Virus record (IMG/VR): IMGVR_UViG_3300032240_001498
Location: 136,605-200,604 of that record
Reading direction: 5' to 3' (one strand)
Source of the DNA: a virus
Taxonomy: Duplodnaviria; Caudoviricetes
Length of the DNA: 64,000 nt
Shown: positions 28,368 to 58,300 of the stretch, piece after piece
Position numbering within the stretch: position 1 is the first letter of the stretch
Layout: every line of letters starts with the position of its first letter
The notes under the pieces: generated by a model
Databases searched by the model: none
The model's input: only the letters and a program-made list of their open reading frames with translations
Told to the model about the DNA's origin: nothing
Position numbers and translations under genes: made by a program

Positions 28368-28757
28368 TTATTTTTTGTTGGCTTTGGCTTTACCAGCTTT
28401 CATATTTGCCTCCCAGTGCGCTAATTCTGCGGCACGACCACTGTGTTTTTTGGCAAATTTACGCAGATTGCTTACACTACTTTTTGTAGGCACATGATAT
28501 CGCTTGCTATCGCCTTTGTCTTCTGGATGACGACCATTTGCAAAGTTTTCGTCAACTTGTTTTTTGATCCAAGTATCAGGTGTTAGATTATGCTTGTCGA
28601 CAAACATATCATGTAATTTTTGTCCAGAAATATCTGCATCTTTACAAATTTTCTGCATGAGTTTATCTATTGAGTCGTAACTATGGCTTGGTAATTTCTT
28701 AAGTCCTTTTTCAAGTTTAAGAACAACGTCTTCAGTTATAACTTCTAGAATTCTCAT
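28368..28757 (-). CDS. Putative head-internal protein (129 aa)
   Basis: The N-terminus MRILEVITE resembles T4 capsid-targeting sequences. The protein is basic and has two modules. Confidence 0.6.
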   Translation of the reverse strand: MRILEVITEDVVLKLEKGLKKLPSHSYDSIDKLMQKICKDADISGQKLHDMFVDKHNLTPDTWIKKQVDENFANGRHPEDKGDSKRYHVPTKSSVSNLRKFAKKHSGRAAELAHWEANMKAGKAKANKK

Positions 28758-29986
28758 TTGTCTAATTTTTTACCAAGCATGACTTCAAGATAGATGTCGT
28801 ATGCATCTTCTTTCATCTTCTTTTTCTTCTTTGGATGTTTGATATGAGCCCAAGCCGCACCTTCTGCTTCTTCTTTGCTCATACCAGGATGTGCCTTCAT
28901 CATGCTCTTGGTAATGTGCTTTGCCTGACGATCAACTTTGGCACCTTCCATCGTAGTTGAAGTATGCTTTAGTGTACCATGACGATGCTGATGTGTGATA
29001 CCGGGAATAACTTCTTCATCGGTTTCTTCTTCTTTATCAACATCTTGTTCACCGTGTACTAGGAAGTCAAACACTGTTTCAATATAATCAGATGCTAGAC
29101 TAATCTTAGTCTGCACCCACGCATCCAACTGTGTGCTAGAATCCATTTGTTCTGCTAATTTAATAGCCAATTTTGCCGCAGTGATTAACTGTTGCTTGGC
29201 CATTGCGCCTTCTGTATCTGTATTTTCAAACATATCGCCTACCTCATCTCCAATCTTTGCACCAGACATCGCGCCCGATGGAGTTTTAGTTATTAATGCT
29301 CCTGCCGCACCGCCAACAACTGCACCTTTGATGCCTTCCACCACACCTTGCTCTTTCATTAAAGAACTACCACCGTGGTGTTTTTCAATATCTTGTTCCT
29401 TACCACTAATAGAGTAGTCCATAACACCTACAATTTTATCTGTAGCCTGAGCAATTTCACTTTGAACCCAGTCTGGTAAATCTTCTCCTCTACCAATTGC
29501 ATTGTCTAAATGTGTTACTACTCGTTTGATTGTATGCAATTGATTTTTAACAAAATCGCCCTCACCATCCGAATGATTATCGGGATCAATATTTTTTAAT
29601 TGTGTATCTTTAACATTGCCTTTAAATTCTTCCGCCACACTTTCATTATGCACACATTTACGAACCCGCCCACCGTTTTTGCCTTTTTTTGTACCAACAG
29701 CATGATGATTCGGCCAGCACTTGGTAAACCCATTGGCATCCTTTTGACCTTTTTTAATTTCATTGAGCATGTCTAATTGGGCTTGGAATTTTTCTTCCAT
29801 TCCCTCAGCATAGTCTTTTTTATGTTTTGTATCGCCTTGTTTCATAGCTTTCTTCTTGTCCTTATGTGCGCCTGCGCCTGTATTGATTGCGTTCTTAGCA
29901 ACAAAGTTACGTGGCTTGGGTGGTTCTATTGAAGCAACCTTTTGTTTATGACGGACCTTGAATCCTCTTTTGCCTTCGTTTATCAT
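28754..29986 (-). CDS. Putative head-internal mosaic protein (410 aa)
   Basis: It has K-rich and E-rich modules, a duplicated helical domain and a glycine zipper. Confidence 0.65.
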   Translation of the reverse strand: MINEGKRGFKVRHKQKVASIEPPKPRNFVAKNAINTGAGAHKDKKKAMKQGDTKHKKDYAEGMEEKFQAQLDMLNEIKKGQKDANGFTKCWPNHHAVGTKKGKNGGRVRKCVHNESVAEEFKGNVKDTQLKNIDPDNHSDGEGDFVKNQLHTIKRVVTHLDNAIGRGEDLPDWVQSEIAQATDKIVGVMDYSISGKEQDIEKHHGGSSLMKEQGVVEGIKGAVVGGAAGALITKTPSGAMSGAKIGDEVGDMFENTDTEGAMAKQQLITAAKLAIKLAEQMDSSTQLDAWVQTKISLASDYIETVFDFLVHGEQDVDKEEETDEEVIPGITHQHRHGTLKHTSTTMEGAKVDRQAKHITKSMMKAHPGMSKEEAEGAAWAHIKHPKKKKKMKEDAYDIYLEVMLGKKLDK

Positions 29987-30621
29987 ACGACTAAATTATT
30001 CCCATCTAATGCATTTGTGCTGGGCTTTTGTTTTTTAGCCGCAGGCTGTTTTGGTGATTTCTTACCAGTACCAGAAGTCATGCTACCTGTGTAACTTTTA
30101 TTGAACGCCCTGCGTTGTAGCTGATGACCAACACTACCACCACTAATTGAACCTACACCAACAACTGCTGTAGCTGATTCTTTAATACGTTTTCCGTCTT
30201 TATCATACTTGCCGGATTTTTTCTTGGCAATAGCAATAGCGGCCTGTTGTGCTCCGCCTTCTGCTATTTGTTGTTGTGTCATCTCTGCAATCATCTGTTC
30301 TCCGCGGGCAATCATGTCTGCCATTTCTTCAATGCTTTCACAATGCCAACGGCGTAAGGCCAATGCCTTTGGAGTAGGTTCACCATTGGGCTTCTTCATA
30401 GGCCCTTTGTTGCCACCCATTCTAGCACAGAATGATTTACGGCGGTTGGCAGCTTTACTGCCCTTCTTTAACTTGCTAGGCTTGGTAGTAACCGCAGTCT
30501 TTAATTTACTGCCAGGATGTTCTCTACGATAAGCGTTTACAGCCTTTTGACTTAGGCCATTTGTCTTGTCGTGATGATTGACTTTGTTCCAATCTTCTGC
30601 AATTAGTTCTGCGATTTTCAT
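29983..30621 (-). CDS. Putative head-internal basic protein (likely start MKIAELIAE at 30621)
   Basis: It has an ATGA coupling at 30618-30621. The N-terminus resembles the T4 internal-protein signal MKTYQEFIAE, followed by GLSQKAVNAYRREHPGSKL...RRKSFCARM. Confidence 0.7.
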   Translation of the reverse strand: MKIAELIAEDWNKVNHHDKTNGLSQKAVNAYRREHPGSKLKTAVTTKPSKLKKGSKAANRRKSFCARMGGNKGPMKKPNGEPTPKALALRRWHCESIEEMADMIARGEQMIAEMTQQQIAEGGAQQAAIAIAKKKSGKYDKDGKRIKESATAVVGVGSISGGSVGHQLQRRAFNKSYTGSMTSGTGKKSPKQPAAKKQKPSTNALDGNNLVV

Positions 30622-30914
30622 TCTTTTTTCTCTCCAGTCATGTATGGAAGACTGAACCATAACTTAAACCACTCAGGAGTTCCTGGTTGTATATTTTGTT
30701 CACGCATAATACGTGCATTCTCTGCGGCAGTAACACTTATGTTGCTACCTTGTTTTAAACTGTTCTTGTACTCTGCTAAACGTTCTTGTCCGCCTAGCCC
30801 ACCTAGAAATTGTAAACGTCGGATTTCTTGTGCAGGATCATCTGGTGCTAGATATGTATCACTATCTTCTTCGATAGGTGCTATATCTGCGGATGTTATT
30901 CTGTACTGTTTCAT
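30618..30914 (-). CDS. Hypothetical protein (98 aa)
   Basis: It has ATGA overlaps on both sides. Confidence 0.7.
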   Translation of the reverse strand: MKQYRITSADIAPIEEDSDTYLAPDDPAQEIRRLQFLGGLGGQERLAEYKNSLKQGSNISVTAAENARIMREQNIQPGTPEWFKLWFSLPYMTGEKKE

Positions 30915-33900
30915 TTACGTTCTAATAATTTAATGTAGCCAGCTAACAAGTTTTCAACGTCTTCGCTGACTGGTACACAGTTATTTACACGTTTTGCTTC
31001 GTGTGTCGCATTACGTTCCGGACTATCTTGCATACCTACTCCAGCCATTGTTTCTGCTGGTACTTTTTGCTTGGGCAACTTAACTGGTTGTGCGGCATCT
31101 GGATGAATACCTTTTTTAGCAGGAGCGCCTATACCCATACCTTTGCGGGTCAATTCCATTAATCTCATGATCCATTCCCTGCCTAATTTTTTAACATCAA
31201 AACCTTGAGCCCATACAGCATATTGTTGCTCCGGAGTAGCATTAGGATCTTTTAATATATTTCGTAAATCAGTAAAACTTACACCAGTGCCACCGGCTTC
31301 GGCAGATCGTTCAGTAACATCAGGAGTGACCTTGACATGTTCATAACCTTGAAACTTATTAACAGCTTTCATTAATGCAGTCGACATGTCGTTGGCCATC
31401 TTTGCTCTATCTTTGCCAACCATGATTATAATATTTTCATAGCGGGGAGGCTGTCCTTTTAACGGATTAATCAACTCGTGTTTGACCTTTTGTAACAAGG
31501 TACCTCCTTCCATGGTAGCACTAATATTCTTAGCGTACTCGGGATATAGTCTATGCCATGTTTGTACTTTAACAGCTGGAGGAATAGGATCATTCGGGCC
31601 TTCTGCATTACCAATAAACAAATACGGATCACCACCTACCTGCGCGGCCTTCTTGATAGTATAATCAAATAACTGTTCGTGCCCTACGTGTCCAACAAAG
31701 CTACCAATGGCAACTACTGCTGTTTTGTTTTCTCCACGAGGGCGTTCTGTACGAGCATTTGTCTTAGCATCTTGTTTTGCTTGAATAACATTACGTTGTT
31801 CTTGACTTGTGATCTTAATAGGACCGAGACGACTGTTAATAACAATGCCCTCGTAGTCCTTGCCTAATAGATCCTTGCCGATAATATTAGGATCATTGAT
31901 GATTGCCTTTTCTAATTCAAGTTTGACCGGCTCAAGTGCGGCTTTGACCTCTGCGGCTTGATCACGCTTCTTGCTATCCAGCATGGCCTTGAACTGTTTG
32001 ATGTTTTTTAGTGGCGGAACAATAGCTGTAACATCTAATGCTTTTTTCTGTGTTAGGCTGTTGTCGATAAACATGACACTACCCTGTTGCTTTAGACTGG
32101 TTAACTGTTTGACAATATCGGCAGAGTCTGGCAAATCTTCACCAGTAGTAGCGTCGGTGACTCGGAATGGCACAAATGCTATCTTTACACCCTTGGGTAA
32201 TTTATCATAGTGTATGCCTACGAATACCAGTTTACCTTCCTTAGTTTCTTTTGCAAAGTTTATATCTAACACTTCGCAGGTAACTTGTTTATTGACTAAG
32301 AATTCTTTACCCAGCTGTTGATCGATAATTTTTATAGCGACCATGTAGTCATTAAACTGCTCGTCAAATTTCTCGCTCATGGCCACGCTTTCTGGGCCCA
32401 TAAAGTCTAGCACTTCTTTATCGGTAATTGACTTTAGTTCTGGATCGTTATCATCTATGCTGTTTGGATCTTCAATACCTTTTTGCTTAGCCAGTAAGCG
32501 TTTCCTAAACCTAGCAATATTGCCTTTTAAGAATCCGCCTGCATATCTTGGTTCAGTGCGACTGGTACCCATGAAAGGTCTGCCTTCGGCATTCTTACCA
32601 AAGCGTCCGCCCATACCATCTACTTTAACATTTAAAGGAATATTTTTTAATTGAAATTGATCATTACCCTGATGCAGTTCATCTAGTAGGTCCAAAAAAT
32701 CTGCACTCTTTAGGTCTTTTAGATGTGGCATGCCTTTTCGCAACTGAGATTTTACTGCCGGCTGTTCTTCGGCTTCGTTAACTGGTGTTGATTGTTTTGC
32801 GGCTTTCTTATTAGTAAATGCTTGCTCGTATGCCATTGCGGTATTAATGGCTTCTTTTCTTAATCCTCGTGCGTTCGGTAACTTCAGATGCTCTACCATG
32901 TAATCAATGGCGGCCATCTTGGTATCGCGATCTCTAACAGGATCGTTTTTTGTAATCATTTGTGAGCCGGGCTCGAAGCATATACTTACAAAACGACGGA
33001 ACAGTTCCGTGCGTTGATTGTCGTCTAGATATTTTGTAGCGAGTTGTACAGTTCCAATGAAACTGTTCTTAAGTTGTTGATCTTGTTTATTTGGTTTCTG
33101 CCCAAAGAAGATTTCAAATTGTTGAGCTAGATTTTTAATATACTGTCTACTATCTGTTGGTAATAGTTGCATTACTGGTATACCGTCTTTTTCCATAGGC
33201 TCGCCAGTATTAGGGTCATTGTAAGGAATATATTTCTGACTTACTCCACCACCACCTTGACCACTGACTGCAAAACTGTAGTCGCTGTCCGTAACCGGCT
33301 CGTCGCTGATTTTTGTACCCTTCTTCAATACACGAGCAACATACTTGGTGCTTACATTTGCGGCATACGGTAAAGCACGATCGATATACTTATGGAATAC
33401 ACCTTTAATACCAGCAGACAAATCTTCCCATGCACTACTATGACTGTAGTCTTGCCACGGTGTTGGTAGCCCAGTCTTTGCATCGTGTTCGCCGTATTCA
33501 AAATCAATCTGTAATTTAACCGGCAAGTCATTTAATGTAACTTGCCACATACTTGAATATTGATTATTACCTGGACTAAATCCGATAAAAACAGTATTGC
33601 CAACTTTTTTACCAATTAATCCTGTTAAGAATTGTTTAATAGTTTCTTCATGTTTGTCTGGAGCCTGCGTATCAATATCACCTACTTTAGGTTTAACGCG
33701 AACAAATTCTTCATCGGGAATTTTTTTATCAAAGAATTTTGCAGTACTACCGCTTAGGAACTTTTGTGCCGCCACAGAATTTTCATGCCAAAGGGGTTCT
33801 TTAAATCGTTGTGCAAATAAATCGTTAATATTATGCAACAAATCGGACAATACTTGTACTACATATGAACGATCGTGTACTCGTAGATCTAACTCTTGTG

Positions 33901-34021
33901 CTTGGTGTTGTCCCGGGATACCTTGCCAACCAGGCATAGGAGTACCATCGTCTTTATGACTGGATTGATTGCCGCCTTCTGACAAGAGGCGCGGTCTAGA
34001 AAATAACTCTAGTAATTTCAT
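30911..34021 (-). CDS. Multidomain nucleotidyltransferase (Pol-beta-like + ATP-ligase-like + HIGH/cytidylyltransferase-like), 1036 aa
   Basis: It contains GS..GDID..QIDFE, then KVDG..EVL..FVPF..EGIVI..IKIT, then GSFVGHVGH..IMVGKDR. Confidence 0.65.
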   Translation of the reverse strand: MKLLELFSRPRLLSEGGNQSSHKDDGTPMPGWQGIPGQHQAQELDLRVHDRSYVVQVLSDLLHNINDLFAQRFKEPLWHENSVAAQKFLSGSTAKFFDKKIPDEEFVRVKPKVGDIDTQAPDKHEETIKQFLTGLIGKKVGNTVFIGFSPGNNQYSSMWQVTLNDLPVKLQIDFEYGEHDAKTGLPTPWQDYSHSSAWEDLSAGIKGVFHKYIDRALPYAANVSTKYVARVLKKGTKISDEPVTDSDYSFAVSGQGGGGVSQKYIPYNDPNTGEPMEKDGIPVMQLLPTDSRQYIKNLAQQFEIFFGQKPNKQDQQLKNSFIGTVQLATKYLDDNQRTELFRRFVSICFEPGSQMITKNDPVRDRDTKMAAIDYMVEHLKLPNARGLRKEAINTAMAYEQAFTNKKAAKQSTPVNEAEEQPAVKSQLRKGMPHLKDLKSADFLDLLDELHQGNDQFQLKNIPLNVKVDGMGGRFGKNAEGRPFMGTSRTEPRYAGGFLKGNIARFRKRLLAKQKGIEDPNSIDDNDPELKSITDKEVLDFMGPESVAMSEKFDEQFNDYMVAIKIIDQQLGKEFLVNKQVTCEVLDINFAKETKEGKLVFVGIHYDKLPKGVKIAFVPFRVTDATTGEDLPDSADIVKQLTSLKQQGSVMFIDNSLTQKKALDVTAIVPPLKNIKQFKAMLDSKKRDQAAEVKAALEPVKLELEKAIINDPNIIGKDLLGKDYEGIVINSRLGPIKITSQEQRNVIQAKQDAKTNARTERPRGENKTAVVAIGSFVGHVGHEQLFDYTIKKAAQVGGDPYLFIGNAEGPNDPIPPAVKVQTWHRLYPEYAKNISATMEGGTLLQKVKHELINPLKGQPPRYENIIIMVGKDRAKMANDMSTALMKAVNKFQGYEHVKVTPDVTERSAEAGGTGVSFTDLRNILKDPNATPEQQYAVWAQGFDVKKLGREWIMRLMELTRKGMGIGAPAKKGIHPDAAQPVKLPKQKVPAETMAGVGMQDSPERNATHEAKRVNNCVPVSEDVENLLAGYIKLLERK

Positions 34022-34389
34022 GGACGGTATTCGCCTTTCTTAATATCTTTGCGATAGTGATCGTCTAGCATGTTGCATAGTTCTTCACACATCTCTTTGT
34101 TGAATACTTCTTGGGGGTGTTGTAGCATTTTGTTGGCATTATGGAATTCCATACAGCCTTTCTTAACCATTGGCATCCATACATTTGCTGTTGAATCGTC
34201 GGTCATCTGTTCTGCAATATCATGGAACTGTTTACGATGGATATCGTCATGATCTAGAATATAAAAGAACAACTCGTTCTTAAATTGGTCTTTTTCTTCA
34301 AGACTCATTGTATACTTTTCGTCTGCTGTCTTGTCTTTGTTCTGATCAGAGTTGACATTAAGGTGGCTAAAAAATTCGTATAGTTTCAT
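34018..34389 (-). CDS. Hypothetical protein (123 aa), MKLYEFF start
   Basis: It has an ATGA coupling and a capsid-targeting-like N-terminus. Confidence 0.7.
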   Translation of the reverse strand: MKLYEFFSHLNVNSDQNKDKTADEKYTMSLEEKDQFKNELFFYILDHDDIHRKQFHDIAEQMTDDSTANVWMPMVKKGCMEFHNANKMLQHPQEVFNKEMCEELCNMLDDHYRKDIKKGEYRP

Positions 34390-34391
34390 GA

Positions 34392-34838
34392 TTAAAAATT
34401 ATAGTTAATAGCCAATAGTGCGCCTTGGCTGATATTGACATTTGCACGTACCCAAGTAAAGTTACCTACAAAGGTTAATGCTACTGTTGAAGTTGTTTGT
34501 AAATTCTGATTATAAAGATACGTTTTTGCTGTATCTTTGACAGGAAACCAGTCAGTTTCTATAGGGTTTGAGGCTAATGTGGCCTGCATAGTAACTGTGC
34601 CTACATAATCTTGTGTTGTCTTGTATGTAACGGTGTGCAATCCGCTACTGATTCCATAATACCCGCAACCTTTTTCTTTGTTGCTAGGGAATGTTAGAAC
34701 ATTATATGGGGGATTAAATGTGCTTTGATTGTGATAATATGCTGGCATACTTAACACGCTGGTCGTTGTTAAGACCGCTGTAGTACCAGTAGTATAGATA
34801 TCTGTATAGAAACTTAGAGTTGTGCTTTGTGCCGGCAT
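34392..34838 (-). CDS. Hypothetical beta-rich protein (148 aa), possibly virion
   Basis: It is T/S-rich, has an AAGGA RBS, and follows a TAAATA motif at 34858-34863. Confidence 0.7.
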   Translation of the reverse strand: MPAQSTTLSFYTDIYTTGTTAVLTTTSVLSMPAYYHNQSTFNPPYNVLTFPSNKEKGCGYYGISSGLHTVTYKTTQDYVGTVTMQATLASNPIETDWFPVKDTAKTYLYNQNLQTTSTVALTFVGNFTWVRANVNISQGALLAINYNF

Positions 34839-34870: not shown

Positions 34871-35553
34871 AGCAAGGTAGACCTGGGAACAAATTCTTCT
34901 ATTTTCTGTATATATTCGCCTACAACCAAGCTCATCATAGTTAAAAACTTAGCGTTAGATACATAACAGAAGGGGTTTGCAACGTACTGTTTTGTACCTA
35001 TCATAAACCCTTCTGTACTTCTACCTATTTTAACAGTATCTTCGTCATATTTAGAAATCCAGCTCCAGAATTGCAAACGCTTATCACGTGGTATCTTTTC
35101 TTTAAAGCATACCTTGTGTGTGTATTTGCCGTAGGGAATAGCATCGCAGATGACCTTGTTTCTGTTGTTAACAAGAAACTCGGCTTCTTCGGGATTTTCT
35201 GGACTGTATATATAGGTGATACACCAAGCTAGAGCTTGTTCTAGCTCATCAACCAGAGACGCATCATTTGTATAGAAGTTAAAGGTACTGCCCTCTGCTC
35301 TGATCTTAATCTCTTTATCGAGGAATGGTTCTACAGCATCTACAAATTTGAGTAAACGCTCTTTTTTGATAGTCTCAAAATGAGTTCTAAAACTTACCTT
35401 TGGGGGTTTATAGAATTGATCATCAGTGCAGAACTTTTTAACCCATTCTATACCGCGCAGACGTATAAGATTTGACCCTTGTACAGAGCACTCAATCTTA
35501 TACGGCCATTTGCCAAAGAATAGTTTATTCGTTGACAGTTTCTGCATCTTCAA
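34864..35553 (-). CDS. Hypothetical protein (229 aa)
   Basis: It is a long ORF overlapping the clpA stop. Confidence 0.75.
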   Translation of the reverse strand: MKMQKLSTNKLFFGKWPYKIECSVQGSNLIRLRGIEWVKKFCTDDQFYKPPKVSFRTHFETIKKERLLKFVDAVEPFLDKEIKIRAEGSTFNFYTNDASLVDELEQALAWCITYIYSPENPEEAEFLVNNRNKVICDAIPYGKYTHKVCFKEKIPRDKRLQFWSWISKYDEDTVKIGRSTEGFMIGTKQYVANPFCYVSNAKFLTMMSLVVGEYIQKIEEFVPRSTLLL

Positions 35554-37804
35554 CTTCTGGAGTATTCTTAACAGCTACGGGTAGTATTTCTACCAAGTCA
35601 AATACAAACTTGTCCTTGTCCATGGTTAGATTAATAACACCACCGTTAGTTAACTTGCCAAACAGGATCTCACGTGATAGGGGCTTCTTGATCTCGTCTT
35701 CAATAACTCTAAACAATGGGCGAGCACCCATCTTAGTATTGAATCCTTTCTTAACCAAGTACTCTAATGCGCTGGTATCTGGTTTAACATGGATATTCTT
35801 ATCTTTAACTAATGCGTTAAGTTCGTCAATAAACTTCTTAACAATCTTAATCATTGTTTCATGACTTAGTTTGCTGAATTGAATAATGCCGTCTAAGCGA
35901 TTGCGGAATTCAGGAGCAAAGAATCTATTAACAGCATCTTTGTTGTCATATTCTTTCTCCATCTTACCAAAGCCAATACCGTTTTTCTCAGCATCACTTG
36001 CACCTAGGTTACTGGTTAAGATAACAATAGCCTGACGTGCATCTGCTTTCTTACCGTTGCTACCTGTAACAAACCCATTGTCCATAAGTTGCAATAGGAT
36101 ATTGCTAACGCTTGGGTGTGCTTTTTCAATCTCGTCTAGCAACAGGATACAGTTTGGATGTTCTTGTAGTTTAGTAATCAATTGTCCGGCATTATCTTCA
36201 AAGCCAACATAGCCGGGAGGGGCACCAATCAACTTGGCAACGGAATGTTGTTCTTGGTATTCACTCATATCAAAGCGAACCATTTGCACACCCATTTGCT
36301 CTGCAAGTACTTTAGCAGTTTCTGTCTTGCCACAACCTGTTGGACCAACAAACAAGAAACTACCAATGGGTTTGTTAATTGCTTTAAGACCAGCTTGGCT
36401 AATGTAAATTTTGTCTAACAAGATATCAATTGCTTTTTCTTGGCCAAACACCTTGTTACGCATGTTCTTATCAAGCTCTTTAAGATTCTTATTTTCCTTG
36501 CTAGACACCTGTTCTAAAGGCAAGCCAGTAATCTTAGCTACTTCAAAAACAATTTCATCATGATCGACAATACCACCATCTTCGTCACGTACCTTAAAGC
36601 GGGCACACGCACAGTCAATTAGGTCAATGGCCTTGTCTGGCAATTTACGATCGCTAATATATTTGGTTGAATACTTAACTGAATCGACAATGGCTTGAGT
36701 TGTAATCTTAACATTGTGATGTTTTTCGTAATACTTCTTAAGACCCTTCATGATCTTAATAGCAGTTGCTTCATTTGGCTCGTCAACTGTTACACGCTGG
36801 AATCGACGCATTAGCGCACGATCCTTCTCAAAGTGCTTGCGATATTCTTCCCAAGTAGTAGAAGCAATAACCTTTAGAGTACCTTTGCCCAATGCTGGCT
36901 TTAACATATTGGCCATGTCGTTTGATCCGCCACTTACTGCACCTGCACCGTTCATCATGTGTGCTTCGTCGATGAACAGAATAGTGTTCTTTTTACGTTC
37001 AAGTGCATGGATAACCATCTTCAAGCGTTCTTCAAAGTCTCCACGATACTTAGATCCGGCAAGCATGGCACTAATATCTAGTGAGTATACAACGTGATCT
37101 TTGATATACTTAGGTACTGTACCTGCTAGGATCTTGTTAGCAAGTCCTTCTGCAATAGCAGTCTTACCCACGCCTGGATCACCGATCATCATTACGTTTG
37201 ATTTTGTACGACGGGCAAGAATAAGTTGAATTTCTTCAATTTCTTTTTCACGACCAATAACTGGATCGATCTTTTTCTCTTTAGCACGTTTGCTAAGATT
37301 CACACAATATTGTGCCAACATCTTTTCTAGTTGTGGGCTGGCACCTTCTTTGCCCTCTATAACTTCAGATTCTTCAGCTTCGTTGTTTAGATATTCAATG
37401 AACTTGTCTTTGTCAATCTTAGACTTACGAATCACATAAGCGGCATAACTTTTCTTTTCTGAGAACATGCTCAAAAAACAGTCCATTGGTTCAATAGTAC
37501 TTCTACCGCCAAACAATACCTGTGTAAATGCTCTGTTAAGCATACGTTCCATTGCATGGGTTTTTTTAGGTTTTTGTCCATCCACTGATGCAATAGAAGA
37601 TAATTCAGTTGTTACATATTCTGTAATGTCCGTCTTTAGCTGATTAGTATCAGCACCAAAGTCTGATAGTTTTTTATCAAATTTTTCATCTAACAACAAA
37701 CCGTATAGGAAATGTTCTAGGGTGATATATTCGTGTTTATGACTCATCGCAAGATGAACAGCACGTTCAAAAATACGTTCTAGGTCTTGATTAGGTTCAA
37801 GCAT
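35525..37804 (-). CDS. clpA: ClpA ATP-dependent Clp protease ATPase subunit
   Basis: It has the N-domain HEYITLEH, D1 GDPGVGKT/LFIDEAH and D2 GPTGCGKT/LLLDEIEKAH. The ClpP-docking GIGF loop is present, as are FAPEFRNRLD and GARPL. There is no ClpB middle coiled coil. Confidence 0.92.
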   Translation of the reverse strand: MLEPNQDLERIFERAVHLAMSHKHEYITLEHFLYGLLLDEKFDKKLSDFGADTNQLKTDITEYVTTELSSIASVDGQKPKKTHAMERMLNRAFTQVLFGGRSTIEPMDCFLSMFSEKKSYAAYVIRKSKIDKDKFIEYLNNEAEESEVIEGKEGASPQLEKMLAQYCVNLSKRAKEKKIDPVIGREKEIEEIQLILARRTKSNVMMIGDPGVGKTAIAEGLANKILAGTVPKYIKDHVVYSLDISAMLAGSKYRGDFEERLKMVIHALERKKNTILFIDEAHMMNGAGAVSGGSNDMANMLKPALGKGTLKVIASTTWEEYRKHFEKDRALMRRFQRVTVDEPNEATAIKIMKGLKKYYEKHHNVKITTQAIVDSVKYSTKYISDRKLPDKAIDLIDCACARFKVRDEDGGIVDHDEIVFEVAKITGLPLEQVSSKENKNLKELDKNMRNKVFGQEKAIDILLDKIYISQAGLKAINKPIGSFLFVGPTGCGKTETAKVLAEQMGVQMVRFDMSEYQEQHSVAKLIGAPPGYVGFEDNAGQLITKLQEHPNCILLLDEIEKAHPSVSNILLQLMDNGFVTGSNGKKADARQAIVILTSNLGASDAEKNGIGFGKMEKEYDNKDAVNRFFAPEFRNRLDGIIQFSKLSHETMIKIVKKFIDELNALVKDKNIHVKPDTSALEYLVKKGFNTKMGARPLFRVIEDEIKKPLSREILFGKLTNGGVINLTMDKDKFVFDLVEILPVAVKNTPEVEDAETVNE

Positions 37805-38309
37805 TAAATTTCCTTCTATTTGATTTTAATTTTTTAAGCGCCATTGCCCATTTTAACTGGCTGACACGATCTGAAAACACAACCCCTTCGAGATGGTCCA
37901 ACTCATGCAAAAATACCTTGCACATGTAACCGTCAAACTCACCTTCCATTGGCTCCCCGCTACTATTTTGCCAACTGACCTTAATAGCTTTAGGCCTCTT
38001 TATATTAACATATATTCCGGGAAAACTCAAACATCCTTCTTCCAAATCAGCTATATCTTTTGTGTTAGCTGTTACAATTGGATTAAAAAATACAGTAGCA
38101 TTTTCTGGAATACGTGGATCGCCCATTGCAAACGCTCGAGTCTCTACTCCTGCTTGATTAGCCGCAAGCCCAATACCGCCGTTGGCAAACATGGTTTCAA
38201 TTAAATTCTTTTCTAATTCTTTTGGATCGACTACTGGATTAGCAAAATCAAAATCAGGCATTTTACTTCGTAGTATCGGGTTTGGAAATTTAATAATTTG
38301 TAGTATCAT
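37797..38309 (-). CDS. def: Peptide deformylase
   Basis: It contains GIGLAANQ, EGCLS and HELDH. Confidence 0.93.
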   Translation of the reverse strand: MILQIIKFPNPILRSKMPDFDFANPVVDPKELEKNLIETMFANGGIGLAANQAGVETRAFAMGDPRIPENATVFFNPIVTANTKDIADLEEGCLSFPGIYVNIKRPKAIKVSWQNSSGEPMEGEFDGYMCKVFLHELDHLEGVVFSDRVSQLKWAMALKKLKSNRRKFNA

Positions 38310-48888: not shown

Positions 48889-51735
48889 TTATAATGACAG
48901 CGGATTGCCATCTTCAGTTTGAATATCTGTATCTGCAAATACAGCGTGTGTTATATCGGGGTCTGTAAACGCATTATAACTTTCTGTATCTAAGTAGAAA
49001 GATGTACTTACACCGCCACCCTGAGCCGCAGTTAATCCAAATACCAATTGTTTGACACCTAAATTAAAGTTTAGCACGGACCCAAACGGTATTCTAGATT
49101 CAACAGGGTTACTTATGGTAATTTGAGAGTTTGGAACATCTACATAGGTAATTACAGTACCTTGTTTTACTCCCCTAAATAAACATCTCATGCCCGGTAA
49201 CAGTCCGCTAATCTCAGATAATGTTATTACATTACGAACATCGTCGGTAGGAGAGATTGTTACAGATGTAGTCCTTGAAGAAATAGCATCTTCAACAGTG
49301 ATACGATCAATATCAAAATCAATATTCTTAAAATCAAACCCTTTGTTTTTAATGTTGGTAATAATATCGCTTGATCTATTCGGGACAGTATAGCATAAAA
49401 TAAATGCTTTAATAAATCCCAACGGAGTACCAGTTGCTCGTTGCAGAGTCTGCATGAATTTTGGACGTAGTTGTCCATCTACACTAATCAATTGTCCTTG
49501 TGTGGGAGATATTGCCGCTAATGATCCTTGTTCATTGATAACGCTATCTGGGTAATAGGTTACAACAGAACCATTGACCACTTGAGTAAAACTAGGACTA
49601 ACGCTAATTTTGTTGCCGTCCATTTGATCATCGATGATATCTAAGTAGATCACATCATACAATACATTTCCGGCATCATCAACTGCTTGTGCAGTTTTTA
49701 TATCTCCGAAGTAGTAACGCTTTCTCTGAAAATAATTTGTTAATGCAGGAGTGTATGCATCTATATCAATTTGTTCGACGCCATATTCAATGGTCATCTT
49801 AACTTTACTTTGTACACCAAAATCAGGATCATCAGATTTATACAGTAAACTTCTGTCAAAGACAACAGAGTCACTGACCAACGACTTAACATACGATCTT
49901 TGATCCGGAGTTAGTAACGGACTTACAAAAATGTTTGTGTAAGGAATAATTGAAGTTTCTTCAATTTCGATAGTAAAGTCTTTAGAAACAGCAGATAACA
50001 AATAGCTGTCTCGAGCAGAGATATTGAAATGATATTGCTTATCAAATGTTGTGCGACCTAAGTCAAAGGTAGTTCTTCCAAATCCTAAAATTGTAGCATC
50101 AAAATTAGTCTGTATGTTGTACGGGACAGTTCCTGTAATGTTTCCTTGATTGGTTAGACTTAGCCCGGGAGGTAATGATCCTCCAGTAAGGTTATACACA
50201 ATGTCAAGACCAACAGTTTTGTGTTTGGCAACAACGCTTAGATCGCTAACATATCCAGGTCGGATATATCCCAAGTCCGTATCAGTGACCCATTCGATCG
50301 GATTCTCAACATCGCCCTTGACTATTATGTTAAAGATTTGATTATCAGAAACGGTATCGGTAGTGTCGTAATCGCTCTTTGTAATTCTAACAGTAAATCT
50401 ATAGGTTTGACTATATGCAGGTTGATAAGGGATGCGACCGTATAACAGTCCAGTTTCTTTGTCTAACTCTAATCCTTCGGGATGAACACTGGCTGAGCCT
50501 ATGTATAACGTAGTCTTATCTGGGATGTCATATTTTAAAGGTGTATCTATGGTCAGAATGTAACCATAGTCGCCAAATTTTTCAACCTTGGTTATGTTAT
50601 AAACAAAGTTATTGGCTACTGCAACATACGGAGCCAGTTGAACTTGCATCCCACTTAACGGAACCCCAATTGATTTACTGATATAGATTTTATTCTGTAC
50701 AGCCAAATTTACAGTTGGTAAGAATATTTCATTTATTCGGCTGTCAGTATAAACTCTAATCTCTGGATTGACTCGGATTAGGTCCCAATCAAAGGTCACC
50801 GGACCAACAAACGGATATGGATCAAACACTGTTAGATCTATACCATGATTATTATTTGCTCGGATAGTTCCTAGATTAGCAGGATCTGGCAACAGGCTCT
50901 TATCAGCCGCCACCCATACCGGTGTTTGAAGATAACCTATGTCTGCTAAAAAGTTTGTGGTGTCGGAATCAATTTGTGTCGTGTCTGCACGGAACGCATT
51001 TGGATCTTCAACTCGTATTTTAAATTTTTGTCTGGCGCTAGAAATACCATCTGTTACAGTAATATAAAACGGATAAATCTTACTAACTGATGTAGGAACG
51101 CCGTCTGGATTCTTGTTAAAAAATACCACGTGATCATAAGGATATGCATCATACGATTCTGCATCATACCCCCCAATTTTGCTGGCGTTAAAATCTAGTG
51201 TTAGATTATCGTTTACATATCCGCTGATTAATCCTGTCTTTCCGTTTAACCGTAAACCGGGCGGTAATGCACCATCACCGTCTGCAATATAGTATGTTAA
51301 CTCTTTTCCTCTTGGAAGTTTATTTGTTTGGGCCTGTAATAAAATATCTACACGATTTTTATTAAGGCAATAAGGTTCTGCTTTTGGCCCAACTTCTAAA
51401 TATCCTTCTGGAGTAATCCAGGTAGGAGCAACAGGTCCGGTGATGTTTAGAGTAAATGTACGATCTGCAACACCATAGATGTTTGATGCACGTAATACTA
51501 TTGTTGATGACACATTTTCATTAACTGTATAAGGAGTACCTCGTATTTCCAACGAAGTAACTTCAGCCAATGATGTGCCTGTGTTAATATAGAAGTTGAA
51601 AAATCCTGGAGGGGTACCGGATATAAGATCAAAGTCACTTGCTCCTACAGCGGTAAGCACAAATGATGCTTCTTGTGCTTGTACATAGGTACCTATACTT
51701 CCGGCAGGGGTAATCCATTTTGGTGGAGATGACAT
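48889..51735 (-). CDS. Baseplate wedge-like protein with Ig-like (LPPGL) repeats (948 aa)
   Basis: It has repeated P.WITP.G and LPPGL.L...G.I.G modules and lies in the tail block. Confidence 0.65.
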   Translation of the reverse strand: MSSPPKWITPAGSIGTYVQAQEASFVLTAVGASDFDLISGTPPGFFNFYINTGTSLAEVTSLEIRGTPYTVNENVSSTIVLRASNIYGVADRTFTLNITGPVAPTWITPEGYLEVGPKAEPYCLNKNRVDILLQAQTNKLPRGKELTYYIADGDGALPPGLRLNGKTGLISGYVNDNLTLDFNASKIGGYDAESYDAYPYDHVVFFNKNPDGVPTSVSKIYPFYITVTDGISSARQKFKIRVEDPNAFRADTTQIDSDTTNFLADIGYLQTPVWVAADKSLLPDPANLGTIRANNNHGIDLTVFDPYPFVGPVTFDWDLIRVNPEIRVYTDSRINEIFLPTVNLAVQNKIYISKSIGVPLSGMQVQLAPYVAVANNFVYNITKVEKFGDYGYILTIDTPLKYDIPDKTTLYIGSASVHPEGLELDKETGLLYGRIPYQPAYSQTYRFTVRITKSDYDTTDTVSDNQIFNIIVKGDVENPIEWVTDTDLGYIRPGYVSDLSVVAKHKTVGLDIVYNLTGGSLPPGLSLTNQGNITGTVPYNIQTNFDATILGFGRTTFDLGRTTFDKQYHFNISARDSYLLSAVSKDFTIEIEETSIIPYTNIFVSPLLTPDQRSYVKSLVSDSVVFDRSLLYKSDDPDFGVQSKVKMTIEYGVEQIDIDAYTPALTNYFQRKRYYFGDIKTAQAVDDAGNVLYDVIYLDIIDDQMDGNKISVSPSFTQVVNGSVVTYYPDSVINEQGSLAAISPTQGQLISVDGQLRPKFMQTLQRATGTPLGFIKAFILCYTVPNRSSDIITNIKNKGFDFKNIDFDIDRITVEDAISSRTTSVTISPTDDVRNVITLSEISGLLPGMRCLFRGVKQGTVITYVDVPNSQITISNPVESRIPFGSVLNFNLGVKQLVFGLTAAQGGGVSTSFYLDTESYNAFTDPDITHAVFADTDIQTEDGNPLSL

Positions 51736-52298
51736 TAAACTCTTCCTACAACAACCTCAATCATGCCAGGAAATTCACTGTCATAATTTTCAAGGGCTTT
51801 ACCAATAACAGATCCGACTTTTGGATCATCGCTAGATGTAGCAACTCCTGGTATATTACTTGCAACCATTAGGTCTCCCTTTTTAATAGTTCCTACCACA
51901 CGACATGGAACTCTCCCTAGTAGTGCAACTTCTGGGCCATAGCAGTCTGTGTTCATTACGTATGCCGGATAACTTGAAATGATACCTGCGATATTTCTAC
52001 ATCCTGCATCTGTACTGATTGTGATTTCTTTTTTACCTCCAAATACTACAACGGTGCCTGGATCATAAAATTCGTCACTGGTATATTTTTCTGCCAAGTC
52101 AGCATACGTAGCTTGGAATGAAGAATTACTGCCTAATACGTATGTACCATTTACTGTGCAGGTTCCGCTGGCCGATAGTGATGTTAGCCCGGTAATGGCC
52201 TGTAATCCAGTTATAGATCCTGGACTGCTCATTGAGATTGACACAACATCTAGTACTAGACTGCTATCTAACGTATCGCTTCTTACTTTTGTTACCAT
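51735..52298 (-). CDS. Short tail-associated protein consisting mostly of an IMC/Peptidase_G2-like domain
   Basis: It contains YADLAEKY...VALLGRVPCRVVGTIKKGD...IGKALE. Confidence 0.7.
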   Translation of the reverse strand: MVTKVRSDTLDSSLVLDVVSISMSSPGSITGLQAITGLTSLSASGTCTVNGTYVLGSNSSFQATYADLAEKYTSDEFYDPGTVVVFGGKKEITISTDAGCRNIAGIISSYPAYVMNTDCYGPEVALLGRVPCRVVGTIKKGDLMVASNIPGVATSSDDPKVGSVIGKALENYDSEFPGMIEVVVGRV

Positions 52299-52311: not shown

Positions 52312-55300
52312 TTATTTGATAGCACACTCTACTAAGCCTGGCTCAGTGGTAGTTGTTAATGCAAAGCCAAATGGATGACGTCCATTACTTACATTTGTTG
52401 CGCCGCCGTCTACGTCTGGGTAAATTGGGTCACCTTTCTTAACTGCAACATTTAGTTTAACTGGTACACGACCTGTTAATGCTATTGGCTGACCGTTAGC
52501 ACCTGCATTCATCAAGTGAGCAGGGTTAGTTGATATAACACCTAGTACCCAGCAATCAGGACCTGTTACCGCAGTAACTTCCTCATCACCACCGACCATA
52601 ACAACTGTACCTGGATCGTACTCAACATCTGTTGTGTATTTCTCTGCCAAGTCAGCGTAGTTTGCTGTTGTAGCATTACCGCTCAAATTACCGCTAAATG
52701 TTCCAGCAGTTACGTTACCGCTGGCATCACGTTGCATAATCGAGTATGCCGTGTTAGCAGAGTAAACTGCTGAACGTTGACTTCCGTCCTCGCCTAGTAA
52801 CTTGTTAGCTTTAGCCGCTGTACCTGTTGTATCTTGGTTCCAGGTAGTTACAGTACCTGTTAGTTTACTGTAATTTAAACTGGTAATCCAAGCTGGGTCG
52901 GCATAGCTACCGTTGGTGTATACACCGTTAGTTACAGTTGCCGCATTACCATCAATGCTTGTGATACCAGTCAATGCAATCGCACCACTTCCCCTGTTAA
53001 TGGCAATTTGGGTAGTACCAAGATAGAACTGTTGTCCCACTGGTGCCGCACCGATTGAGTTATAGGATATATTTCTTGCGGTACCGCCATTATATGTACT
53101 ATCTGCTACTGCTCCTGTACCGTCGTTCTTGAATGTTAGCGCATTAGCAACGTTGGCCGCAGTACCATCAATACTGTTAATGCCAGTCAACGCCTGCGCC
53201 GCACTACTGCGATTATTTGTAATAGCTGTAGTACCAATATAGAATGTAGCACCTACTAGATCAAGCGTACCAGTTGCGCTTGGCATTGTGATAGTTGGAC
53301 TACCAGTTGCTGAAGGTTGTAGTATAGTGTTACCACTTGTAGCACCTGGCATCGTAAGAGTATTAATACCCGCTAATGCCAATGTACCAGTTGCTCTATT
53401 ATTAGCAACCTGTGTAGTACCGATATAGAATGTATCACCCAGGACTGCTAACGTTGCTGTCTTTGCCGGCAATGTTAGTGTGTTGGATCCAGCAACTGCC
53501 GCAGGCGTTAGTGTAATACCACCACTTGAGCTTCCTGGCATTTGAAGGTTAGTAATACCTGCCAAGTCTAAGTTACCACTTGTTCTATTCAACGCAACAG
53601 CAGTTGTACCAATGTACACGTTTGTACCACCTTGAACTGAACTTGGAATAGTACCAGTTAGTTTGCCTGCATCTAATGTGCCAATGAAAGAAGGATTACT
53701 GTATATGACAGCAGATGAGACCCCATTGGTAACCTTGCTAACGTCGTAGCTAGGAATCCAACTTGGATTAGGATAACTTCCAGTAGTGTATACACCGTTA
53801 ACCACATAAGTAGCAGTTGTTGAGAAATTAGACTGCTGTACATTACCTGATGCAGTTTGATAACCTTGCGCAACCACCCAGCTTTGGTAGGCCATTGTCT
53901 GACGAGTCGGACCTTGGCTGGTAATATAAAGATTGTTTCCATCCCATTCAACTGCTCCAACTACTGTATTCGTTAATGTTGAACCAACATTTAACTGAAT
54001 TGCTGATTGTAGTGTGGTACCTGCCGCAACAGTTAAGTATGCCGCACCCAGTGCTCCACCAATACCTAAACGATTAACTTGATAATTATTTGCACTATTA
54101 AGAGCATTAGCACTTGACGCAGTAACAGCATTGTCAATAGTACCTGACGATGTAAGGTATGCCGCACCGTTGGCAAATATTGTATTGCTTGGCGGTGTAC
54201 CAGTTAAGCCGTTCCATGGCGCAATAGCCGCATAGGTTGATGTCTGTGCTATCTGAGCATATACAGCGTAGGTTGAATATGTTGATGTATTTGCACTTGT
54301 GATATTATCTGCAAACTTCAAGAACCCTTGTGCATTTACATAGGTTTGACTTGCCACGGTCATTCGTGTTGTGCCTGCGGTCTGTGTATAATACAAATAT
54401 GTACCATCGAATTCAATAGCACCTACTTGAGGAGCAGATAATACTGTTCCCGCAATTAGTTTTAAGGTAGGTTTTGATGATGTACCTGCGGCAAGATATA
54501 GACTCTTACCAGTATTGATAGTTACATCACCTGAAATTGTGCCACCTGATTTTTCATACTTGTTGGCATTTAATTGATCGACTGCATCCTGTAAGTTATT
54601 AGCAGTTAATGGAAAGCTGGCAGTATATGCAACTGAGTTGGCATTAACCTGGAAGAAATAATATCCATCAACTTCTGCTAATACATAATCGCCTGTCTTT
54701 AAGCCAGTACCTAATGTAAAGGTTGTGGTACTTGTTTCAGTGTAGTCAGCACCACCAGTTTTTGCCGCATCCACGCTCTGACGAACACCGTTAACATAAA
54801 CACGAAGTTGTCCTGATCCGACAGTATAAGTTGGAGCAGTGAACACCGTTTGTCCGTCTGATGCTACAGTAGTAGCCAACCTTTGAGTTAGAATCTTTGT
54901 ACCTGTTTGTAGGCCACCACCTAGTTCTTGACCCCAGTAGTACTGTCCAGTACCGCTGGCTTTCAATACAAAACCAACTGACGGACTATTTGAAGCTCCG
55001 GCTAAAATATTAGTTAGAGCACCGCTGGCTGTACCTGCGGCTGTTCCGCCGTGTTCGATACCTAATGTACCGCCAATCTGTCCTGCATCAATGGCACCAA
55101 ATAATGTATTGGCATAGACATTGTTGTACTTGTTGCCAGTAGTGCCAAGATCATATGTACCATCCTGTGATGGAGACAACCCTTGAGTAGTTAGGTTACT
55201 GGTAAGATTGATACTAACCCAACCATTGCTTGCACTAAATTGTGTACTGTTGAATGTTGCAACACCTAATAGACTTTGATTAAAGGTTAACGGTGCAGTA

Positions 55301-58300
55301 TTATATAATGCTTTTGCATCCTGTAATGCTAATTTACTTTGTTGGATAGCCGCCGCAGTATTAATATGATGGTCAGTAATTGGATTAGTTGATCCTTGTC
55401 CACCTACTAATTTAACGACAGCAAATCGACCGTTGCGTGTAATAGTAACATCACTGCCACCACCTCTTGTTAATGGAGTATTAATAATAGTAGTAGTACT
55501 GTTAGCAACGTTAACTACTTGTCTAGCAGAATTGTACAGCGGAGTAACAGTTGAACTAGATGCAGTGATATTGCTACCAAACATCATTAGATCGCCGTCA
55601 GCTGTGTTAGCTAAGGATACATCACGCATCTTCGCTATCTGAGATTGACTGTCTACATAACGTTTGTTTGCCGCTTGATATACGCTGTCAAAATACAATG
55701 TAGTGCTTGGAGCAACTGTTCCAATGGCATTTGGGCTGATGCTAACTACGTTTGATGTTGTGCTGACATTGGTAACTGTTGTGCCACCGATAAAATTAAA
55801 TGCACCAACACCTGGATCGTATGTAACCTGCATACCAGGAACAAGTCCAGCTACGCTATCTAAGTATAGCAATCCATCGCCATTGTTAACCTGGGCTGAC
55901 AATACATGTGTAACAACTTTAGGATCGCCGTTTAATATCAACGATCCGCTCATTACACCTGCACCTTGTCCGCCTTTGTAAAATAACTCGTTAGTTCCGC
56001 GTTTGCTTATTTTGTCGTCGGCATAATCTTTATTAGCCGCATCAGTTCCGCCTGTTGGAGTACCAACGTTAGTTACTTTATTGCCAGCCATGTTCAATGG
56101 AGCCGCCATTGGTATCACACCGTTAGTTGCAATAGCACCTGGGCCAAGCACTGATGTTTTCCCACCAGATGTATCAAATCCTAGTCTACGACCAACATAA
56201 CCCACAATAGCAGATTCTGTAGGAACAGTGCGTGGATTGTTACCTGCCATGGTCTCGTCAATTGAGAAGTTATCAACTTCAACACCTTTCTTAAAGGACA
56301 GTTTGCTAATACCGCTCAATGCAATCGGTGCGTTAATTGTTACAGTACCGCGACCTTGATCAACGGAGAAGTACTTGCCAACACGGAAGTTACCGTCTTG
56401 GTCAGTGGTTACTGAGTATACGCGACCTTTACCGACTTCTCTAGTGATCTTACCTGCATCAGGAAGATATGTTGGAGGTCCATATAGATCGTTTGGATAT
56501 TTAGAACTTGCATAACCACCAGTACCTACGTTCAACATATCGTGGCCTGTGGCACGCATTGTCGAAATCTGTATGGTTACGGCACCACCTTGATTTTTTT
56601 CTATACCAGCATACAAAGGCTGTGTACTAGAATACCAAAATTCTTTAGTTAGTGTTGTGGCTACAGAATTTATTGGTACAAATTCAATTTCATTCCATGC
56701 ACCACCTGTTGCACTGGTATCATTAAATTTGTTACGGGTTCCGGCAGGCACATATTTGGTAATCTTGTACATCTGACCTTCGTAACCAAATTGGTAGTAG
56801 TAAGGCTTTGCCGCAGTTAAACCTGTGTTAATTCTTGCAATGTCTGAAGATTTAATATTGGCAGTCTTGATAACTGTTGATCCAACCATACCAGACAATG
56901 ATACTGTTACACTTGCGTTACCCGATACACCAACTGGACTTGGCCAGATTGTCACGGCAGGAGCGATATCGTAACCAATACCTGGGTCTGTAATTACCAA
57001 GTCGGTAATGTAGCCAGTTGCTTGATTAGATGTAGCATAGGCAGTTGCAGTACTACCAATGAAACTCAATGCTGTACTGGCTGTCCATGCCTGCGCCAGC
57101 GTTGTTTGAATCACAGAATTATCTGTACTTGCCCACAAGACTTTTTGTCCTGATAAGACGCCCGCTCCACTAATGGTCATACCTGGATGAATATTACCGC
57201 TTGCAGAAGCAATACTAAGTTGAGTTACACCTATCTGTGCAGTACCTTGATTGCCCAATACCACCGCAGACTTAATTGTAGGAGCAACAATAGTTGCAGT
57301 CCACGAAGCAGTTGTAGTATATCCTGATCCTGTTGATACAAAGTTAGGACGGCCAATACCTTGACTGAAGGTACTATCTTTGGTATATGGAGTGATGCTA
57401 ATATAGTCGTATGCTTCCTCTGACTCTGCTAACACATAGTCACTGCCTAAGTTGACATAGTTTAGAATACGATAGATATATGTTGACTCTTCGTTAAGTG
57501 TCAATACTGTACTTGGTCGAGTAACCGCAGATGCATTTAGGCCATACAATCTAAATTGTGTCTGTAGTCTAATGGTTACGGGCGAGCCATCTGGGATTGC
57601 CGCGTAAATGCCTCCTATGGCTGTAGTATCGATACTAAGAACATACACGTTGCCAACCACTTGTGATGCATTCTGTATGTTATAAATCTTTCTAATACCA
57701 TAATGGTTGACTTCAACTTCGCTACCTGCAAAAGGAGCATAGCCATATGTAGGATCGATTGTTACATAGAACTGAGCACCACCAGCAATGTTTTGATATG
57801 GTGCTTGGTTGTAGACTGTTGCTACCTGTGCTAATTGATCAGGTAGTGTAACTGGTGTAGGAATTTCTAATGGATTAGAACCTTCAGATACTAGACCATA
57901 GAAACCGTAACAGCTTGAACCAGTAATACTACGAACCTGTGCGCCGTTAAGAGCATAGTAAGAAGTCCAGTTGTAGTATGTGAACATACTAACGTTTTCT
58001 ATCAAACCACCGTTGGTTGCAAATACACCATAACCCAAATCGTTAATCTGTGTATAGTCGTTAGCCAACATACTTCTGTTACCAGCTGTATTAAGTTCAA
58101 TGTTGTATGGTAATGGGCCAACAAAACCGTTCTTTAGCACGGCACTGAATGACTGTTGACCAAATGTAACAGTTGGGGTAACGCTGAGACTGTAACCAGT
58201 ACCACCGTATGATAAGTTGATGCTGGTAATGGCCCCATTTACATCAACTGCTGTAATAGTTGCAGTAGCAGGAGTACCACCTCCTCCTGGTGATGAAATT

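Follow-up and report, generated by a model that had tools for sequence, protein, structure and literature searches.

The gene and its family

We analyzed a 64,000-nucleotide stretch of DNA (the window) that forms the final 64 kb of a 200,604-bp IMG/VR record of a tailed phage (IMGVR_UViG_3300032240_001498, positions 136,605 to 200,604). On its minus strand lies a single uninterrupted open reading frame (ORF) with an ATG start, encoding a protein of 1,036 amino acids (aa; P0001) that combines a short N-terminal leader with three predicted nucleotidyltransferase modules. The ATG overlaps the stop codon of an upstream 123-aa gene as ATGA, which suggests translational coupling. Since the full record (G000; positions without this prefix are those of the window) is estimated to be only 55% complete at 200,604 bp, its source is a jumbo phage. 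The DNA polymerase of the record is nearest to those of Sinorhizobium phage Phosso, Agrobacterium phage Atu_ph07, and Rak2/121Q-like coliphages. The features of the gene are listed below, with conservation taken, domain by domain, from alignments of 49 diverse homologues that share 28-83% identity with the query.

30911-34021, minus strand: whole ORF, 1,036 aa (ORF call; ATGA overlap upstream).
33977-34021, minus strand: leader, aa 1-15 (MKLLELFSRPRLLSE), with L13-S-E15 before the invariant G16-G17-N18; candidate capsid-targeting propeptide (conservation; low predicted local distance difference test score, pLDDT, over aa 1-20).
32774-33976, minus strand: domain 1 (module 1), aa 16-416, a catalytic palm, a beta-rich subdomain, and a helical bundle (AlphaFold model, AF2; fold search; phrog_19290).
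33746-33751, minus strand: hG[GS] motif, G91-S92 (invariant; start of helix 91-96 in the model).
33671-33679, minus strand: D115-I-D117, predicted metal-binding carboxylates (invariant; strand 115-121 in the model).
33503-33505, minus strand: D173, predicted third carboxylate, within QIDFE (invariant; strand 169-177 in the model).
32774-32782, minus strand: V414-N-E416 followed by Ala, candidate second protease site in the linker of modules 1 and 2 (142 of 160 three-module homologues).
31742-32773, minus strand: domain 2 (module 2), aa 417-760, RNA-ligase-like adenylyltransferase (AF2, Foldseek, VIA).
32615-32626, minus strand: motif I, K466-V-D-G, with the predicted AMP-accepting lysine (K466, D468, and G469 invariant).
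32273-32275, minus strand: motif III glutamate, E583 (invariant).
31838-31852, minus strand: motif IV, E724-G-I-V-I (E724 and G725 invariant).
31814-31816, minus strand: motif V lysine, K736, in K-I-T (K736 and T738 invariant).
31097-31741, minus strand: domain 3 (module 3), aa 761-975, HxGH (HIGH, cytidylyltransferase-like) domain (phrog_3041, RibF profile, Atlas).
31679-31690, minus strand: HxGH motif, H778-V-G-H781 (H778, G780, and H781 invariant).
31262-31279, minus strand: S915-F-T-D-L-R920, an ISSTxxR-like signature (R920 invariant; T917 in at least 90%).
30911-31096, minus strand: variable C-terminal tail, aa 976-1036, and stop codon (poor conservation; other modules in homologues).

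At 90% identity, the family falls into at least 769 protein clusters, and an exhaustive HMMER scan yielded 804 representatives at the 50% cluster level. Many relatives are 50-80% identical across their full length and lie on contigs of up to 340 kb; overall, the family is strongly conserved and syntenic in metagenomic jumbo phages from freshwater and other sources. No near-identical DNA was found in cultured phages, and in tblastn searches only module 1 has relatives there (in Campylobacter, Vibrio, and Xanthomonas phages), all annotated as hypothetical. In the papers searched, we found no description of the three-module protein or of the rule that its leader follows, and for modules 1 and 2 neither a Pfam family nor a published description. 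These two modules stand for two unclassified enzyme clades.

Folds and motifs of the three modules

The original prediction, made from the DNA alone, had read three unrelated nucleotidyl-transfer folds from short motifs, all of which lie at the residues it named and are invariant or nearly so in homologues. In module 1, GS occupies residues 91-92, GDID residues 114-117 (33671-33682), and QIDFE residues 171-175; module 2 has KVDG at 466-469, EVL at 583-585, FVPF at 616, EGIVI at 724-728, and IKIT at 735-738; and GSFVGHVGH (773-781, 31679-31705) and IMVGKDR (866-872) fall in module 3. One correction concerns GSFVGHVGH, where the motif stands and the DNA range given earlier, 31679-31700, is 5 nucleotides short. 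The three folds are likewise supported, modules 1 and 2 through confident models and fold searches and module 3 through profiles and motifs. Lack of motif conservation in homologues had been named beforehand as grounds for rejection; the key residues turned out to be invariant in all three modules, including G91, S92, D115, D117, Q171, and D173 in module 1 and H778, G780, H781, V868, G869, D871, and R920 in module 3. Judged by these residues, all three modules appear to be catalytically intact.

The AlphaFold model of module 1 has a pLDDT of 93.8. The sole family match of this module is phrog_19290 (E = 1e-31), whose function is not annotated; Pfam and NCBIfam gave no match, and single-sequence and profile searches of the PDB returned nothing meaningful. 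Foldseek found weak matches, the best being Pol beta and MenT4 (E = 8.5e-3), and VIA aligned the module at Z scores of 6.5-7.9 with TUT7, TdT, Pol beta/lambda/mu, OAS2, Trf4, CutA, and cGAS-like receptors. In the AlphaFold Database (AFDB), the fold matched a "polymerase nucleotidyl transferase domain" cluster (E = 5e-6) as well as AbiEii toxins, and the search of AFDB Swiss-Prot entries gave nothing credible. Clusters from the viral Atlas and BFVD also match, some of them bearing a Pol X thumb. These matches are individually weak but consistently of the Pol-beta superfamily, and the modeled fold places module 1 there as a divergent nucleotidyltransferase of a new clade. The RlaP model (PF10127) matched neither aa 1-420 (Pfam, E ≤ 10) nor any of the records G000-G004 (E ≤ 0.1). 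None of the HHH_8, DNA_pol_B_palm, and DNA_pol_B_thumb models matches module 1; its likeness to family X is structural only (Z of about 7).

Module 2 was modeled with a pLDDT of 95.7 and carries ligase motifs I, III, IIIa, IV, and V in order, F600 of motif IIIa being invariant as well. Foldseek matched it with a probability of 1.0 to the RNA ligases Rnl3, T4 Rnl1, and Naegleria Rnl. In VIA, its best match is the Naegleria RNA ligase 5cot (Z 10.7, 191 aligned residues, root-mean-square deviation 3.4), followed by REL1 (9.6), the ligase domain of Clostridium thermocellum Pnkp (9.2), and Rnl3, Rnl2, Rnl1, and DNA ligases (8.3-8.9); all of the best 50 VIA matches are RNA or DNA ligases, with RNA ligases first. 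Residues 420-760 have no Pfam or NCBIfam match (E ≤ 10), and the PDB profile search gave nothing meaningful. Namely, the RNA ligase models PF09414 (RNA_ligase) and PF09511 (RNA_lig_T4_1) do not match module 2, and PF09414 is absent from G000-G004; nor do the DNA ligase models PF01068 and PF01653 match the three-module gene. In the model, motif V is followed by one helix (aa 740-759) and then by the HxGH domain, and the OB domain that bears motif VI is absent; the architecture is therefore RNA-ligase-like. On this model, module 2 is an ATP-dependent ligase-type adenylyltransferase, closest to RNA ligases and lacking the OB domain.

We also considered module 2 as the replicative DNA ligase of the phage. 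That this is its sole role is contradicted by a 93%-complete relative that encodes a conventional PF01068 ligase elsewhere, so that module 2 is an additional ligase there. In the 200-kb record itself, about 55% complete, no conventional DNA ligase (PF01068, PF01653) was found.

Module 3 is matched by phrog_3041, annotated "cytidyltransferase" (E = 2.4e-13), and at the HxGH motif its profile matches chains of the FMN adenylyltransferase RibF (E = 2e-4). Language-model (Atlas) features tie it to viral PF01467 clusters with a score of 0.94. It remains below every curated family cut-off (PF06574 gives 14.9-16.8 bits against a cut-off of 27), and the profile search with module 3 retrieved unannotated relatives only. 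Its profile matches and conserved motifs place it in the HxGH (HIGH) class of nucleotidyltransferases.

We mapped the three segments on 270 retrieved proteins. All three occur together in 160 of these, segment 1 alone in 66, segments 2 and 3 in 16, segments 1 and 2 in 10, segment 3 alone in 17, and segment 2 alone in 1. Modules are thus found apart and recombined, which makes the polypeptide a fusion whose modules are separable. In two metagenomic homologues (P0219, 544 aa; P0267, 602 aa), an HxGH domain precedes a Pol-beta-type module, with no ligase module. The HxGH domain of P0219 aligns with the module 3 profile (hhalign probability 92%, E = 7e-7), and an Atlas cluster also joins CTP_transf_like to a Pol-beta palm. 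Modules 1 and 3 are thus coupled in two orders, which argues for a shared pathway; the HxGH module probably serves the same one as module 1. As for the tail, Pfam found only scattered domains in the long homologues. Three-module homologues (P0033, P0035, P0039, P0040, P0068, P0109, P0161, and P0091) carry varying extra domains there, among them LysM, DUF6321, Amidoligase_2, a second NTP_transf_2, and a deaminase family.

Leader, candidate protease sites, and neighboring genes

The original prediction also described a capsid-targeting-like N-terminus, and the protein does begin as stated. Support for capsid targeting is real but indirect; it comes from a near-universal [L/I/V]-x-E site, a gp21-family protease, and a homologue found in virions. 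In T4, capsid-targeting sequences are removed by the gp21 prohead protease, which cuts after L/I-x-E (PMC9026906). GGN stands at the start of module 1 in 223 of the 229 homologues that cover it. In 28 homologues the protein starts as MGGN, and in most of the remainder it is longer at the N-terminus by 9-18 residues. Glu directly precedes GGN in 191/193, and position P3 is Leu, Ile, or Val in 191/193. Among leaders of at least 8 residues, 136 of 188 open with M-x-[LIF]-x-[EQD]-[LFIMV]-[FILMVA]. The linker around the candidate second site at E416 is otherwise variable, and stand-alone module 2+3 proteins start a few residues past it; no conserved protease site was found between modules 2 and 3.

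At G000:91138-91572, within a portal-protease-scaffold-capsid module, the record has a gene for a gp21-family protease (Peptidase_S77/PF03420, E = 9.6e-27, above the cut-off; phrog_207, head maturation protease). The N-terminal motif M-[KRNLF]-[LIF]-x-[EQD]-[LFIMV]-[FILMVA] opens seven ORFs of the 200-kb record, compared with about 0.2 in shuffled sequences. Four of these lie at 28368-34389 on the minus strand, and the others at G000:C1 43416, 93077, and 99171, beyond the window. An 84-aa ORF with this motif (MLLNEFIYF...) directly follows the portal gene, the position of the T4 prohead core protein gp67. By their N-termini, the seven ORFs are candidates for cargo or core proteins of the head.

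Gene 1-56 of Campylobacter phage vB_CcoM-IBB_35 encodes a module 1 homologue of full length (29% identical, E = 1e-35), whose leader reads MKLSELMFILE|GGN. Its product is among the 38 virion proteins identified in that phage by electrospray ionization tandem mass spectrometry, with 17% coverage (PMC3322345, Table S2). Given the leader site, the gp21-family protease, and this virion homologue, packaging of the three-module protein in the source phage is plausible but unproven.

That the gene sits among probable head-internal genes, as had been suggested, is only partly right. In the wider neighborhood are DNA polymerase B, a ClpA/B-like ATPase, a peptide deformylase, and a clamp loader; three immediate neighbors, however, have an N-terminus of the same type.

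34018-34389, minus strand: upstream 123-aa gene with a leader-like N-terminus, MKLYEFF... (N-terminus comparison).
29983-30660, minus strand: downstream DUF6321 gene; read from an internal Met (29983-30621), it starts MKIAELIAED (DUF6321 is separate from the three-module gene here).
28368-28757, minus strand: 129-aa gene starting MRILEVITED (N-terminus comparison).

A TATAAT-like sequence lies just upstream of the 123-aa gene (33990-34480, minus strand). A gene order is kept in 80 IMG/VR loci: the ClpA/B-like ATPase, three small genes, the three-module gene, a 98-aa gene, DUF6321-type genes, and the DNA polymerase. Synteny with the three-module gene extends to the ClpA/B-type ATPase in 66/80 related loci and to peptide deformylase in 53/80. 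In the window, a ClpA/B-type double AAA+ ATPase (759 aa) and then a peptide deformylase occupy 35525-38309 on the minus strand. Farther away, a 3,132-aa ORF without a Pfam family (52312-61710, minus strand) is followed by a Peptidase_G2-like 187-aa ORF (51735-52298) and a 948-aa He_PIG Ig-domain protein (48889-51735), all of which are probably fiber or other structural proteins. A search for Rnl2-type ligases found none in the 200-kb record, which is 55% complete.

Proposed function, alternatives, and known systems

Our tentative explanation is that this gene of a T4-related jumbo phage specifies a polyprotein that is targeted to the capsid and whose three modules would be processed by the gp21-family protease, injected, and used in fill-and-seal repair; we regard this as quite possible, though far from assured. 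The leader would carry the protein into the prohead core, where the protease would strip it at E15 and cut at E416, yielding a roughly 45-kDa nucleotidyltransferase (module 1) and a roughly 69-kDa ligase-HxGH protein. Both products would then be ejected, together with the DNA, into the host cell. The activity would most probably be to fill in nucleotides and seal broken RNA: module 1 would restore missing nucleotides on a 3'-OH end, and module 2, adenylylated on K466, would seal the break. The substrate would probably be RNA, for example, tRNA cut by host defense nucleases, repaired ahead of phage gene expression, and the HxGH module would transfer a nucleoside monophosphate to a phosphate acceptor. 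RNA is favored over DNA because of the architecture of module 2; DNA could also serve, because module 1 resembles family X polymerases as well.

Several observations weigh against this proposal. The gene lies between replication and chaperone genes, outside the head module, and the T4 late promoter TATAAATA occurs in the window at 2 sites, compared with 6.1 expected, none of them near the gene. The virion evidence comes from one distant stand-alone module 1 homologue (29% identity) in another phage, and the [L/I/V]-x-E that precedes GGN could partly be a structural feature. As for the enzymology, module 1 aligns over its full length with family X DNA polymerases and with RNA-specific enzymes alike, and motif V of module 2 has a single lysine. 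ARAGORN found no tRNA or tmRNA gene in the 200,604-bp record (55% complete), in which neither a CCA-adding enzyme nor a kinase/phosphatase end-healing partner was found. The weakest point of the mechanism is the role of the HxGH module.

Two alternatives keep the polymerase and ligase chemistry and change its setting. The same enzymes could be made after infection and stay in the cytoplasm, with the leader as a conserved structural or regulatory element, which we consider unlikely. T4 Rnl1 and Pnkp are ordinary cytoplasmic phage enzymes of this kind, made postinfection. The conserved block between the ClpA/B-like ATPase with peptide deformylase and the DNA polymerase, the missing late-promoter signal, and the lack of a leader in stand-alone module 2+3 proteins and in 28 module 1 proteins are consistent with such an enzyme. 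Yet the MGGN starts indicate that the leader is dispensable for the fold, and where present it nearly always ends in [L/I/V]-x-E. A location outside the head cluster is also that of the T4 internal-protein genes. Moreover, the same start motif opens the small ORF beside the portal gene, and the IBB_35 homologue was found in virions (PMC3322345). Alternatively, the protein could be packaged as a DNA end-repair machine, in which Pol X-like gap filling precedes sealing or joining of the injected genome by the ligase, the damage being due to restriction, Cas, or RecBCD attack or to preexisting nicks in virion DNA. This seems rather unlikely to us, even though the protein would travel with DNA, about 190 residues of module 1 align with TdT, Pol beta/lambda/mu, and African swine fever virus Pol X (Z 6.5-7.5), and Pol X thumb clusters are among its Atlas and BFVD neighbors. 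Unlike DNA ligases, module 2 has neither an OB domain nor motif VI, RNA ligases match it best, Pfam detects no HhH, 8-kDa, or Pol X thumb domain, and the near-complete relative encodes its conventional DNA ligase separately.

A third alternative changes the chemistry itself. The HxGH module could make NAD+ or another dinucleotide to counter NAD-depleting defenses, or the modules could nucleotidylylate host proteins or make or destroy signaling nucleotides; we find this improbable. The intact HxGH and SxTxxR motifs would fit, as would the weak fold matches of module 1 to OAS2, cGAS-like receptors, CdnG, and alarmone synthetases, and jumbo phages do use HIGH-family nicotinamide mononucleotide (NMN) adenylyltransferases in NAD+ salvage (PMC7824862). 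However, NAMPT occurs in only 1/5 related records and is absent from the 93%-complete one, no NMNAT, PPAT, or GCT family model matches module 3, and the cyclase-like fold matches are no better than the polymerase and terminal uridylyltransferase (TUTase) ones. The ligase fold, with its full set of ligase motifs, points instead to polynucleotide ends. Among the activities named in the original prediction (RNA or tRNA repair, synthesis of NAD+ or a nucleotide messenger, adenylylation of host proteins), it is repair of polynucleotides that the evidence favors.

Returning to the packaged fill-and-seal protein, a more general form of the proposal is that T4-related jumbo phages of a widespread clade inject, along with their DNA, a premade, protease-matured set of enzymes (a Pol-beta-type nucleotide adder and an RNA-ligase-HxGH transferase) that repairs host-inflicted damage to tRNA or other polynucleotides before phage gene expression. 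We consider this form possible but doubtful. Apart from it, the two new clades, ligase and Pol-beta, could be useful enzymes, and [L/I/V]-x-E before GGN might be a simple predictor of head cargo in T4-related phages.

Each part of the protein has known counterparts. Module 3 shares with the HIGH superfamily (RibF, NMNAT, PPAT, and glycerol-3-phosphate cytidylyltransferase; PF01467, PF06574) the GxFxGHxGH and SxTxxR motifs and profile similarity in the HxGH region, and differs in staying under all curated cut-offs and in a first-motif spacing that is one residue shorter. Module 2 resembles the RNA ligases Naegleria gruberi Rnl5, Trypanosoma brucei REL1, C. thermocellum Pnkp, and T4 Rnl1/Rnl2 in its fold (Z 8.5-10.7), in the order of motifs I, III, IIIa, IV, and V, and in having no C-terminal OB domain with motif VI. 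Yet it is only 11-14% identical to them, carries a long helical insertion that separates motif I from motif III, has a one-lysine motif V (K-I-T), and is joined at its C terminus to an HxGH nucleotidyltransferase. The TUTase and REL ligase steps of trypanosome RNA editing are an analogous fill-and-seal process. For jumbo phages, RlaP (PF10127) with an RNA ligase has been predicted to carry out fill-then-seal RNA repair (Burroughs and Aravind 2016, via PMC7824862). Both systems couple a Pol-beta-superfamily nucleotidyltransferase to an ATP-dependent RNA-ligase-type enzyme, with fill-in-then-seal logic predicted. Unlike in those modules, the enzymes are fused here, an HxGH nucleotidyltransferase and a leader are added, the RlaP model is unmatched, and no kinase/phosphatase partner was seen.

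In overall format, the protein is similar to polyvalent phage proteins (multidomain effectors embedded in the virion, cited in PMC9503650), being likewise large, multidomain, and predicted to enter by injection and act early; in contrast to them, it has a T4-type leader rather than a MuF or portal fusion, and a set of three nucleotidyltransferases was not among the domain sets that we found described. In its proposed delivery, it shares with T4 IPI-III and Alt a short N-terminal propeptide ending in L/I-x-E, a gp21-family protease in the genome, enzyme cargo delivered with the DNA (Alt; proposed here), and genes outside the head cluster. The cargo here, however, has about 1,000 aa, three nucleotidyltransferase modules, and an internal site, the 9- to 18-aa leader differs in sequence from MKTYQEFIAE, and packaging is a prediction. 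Most injected phage proteins known so far act by blocking or modifying factors of the host, examples being the T4 internal protein IPI*, Alt, and virion RNA polymerases. If our proposal is correct, the three-module protein would follow a different logic, that of a virion-delivered counterdefense by repair and not by inhibition.

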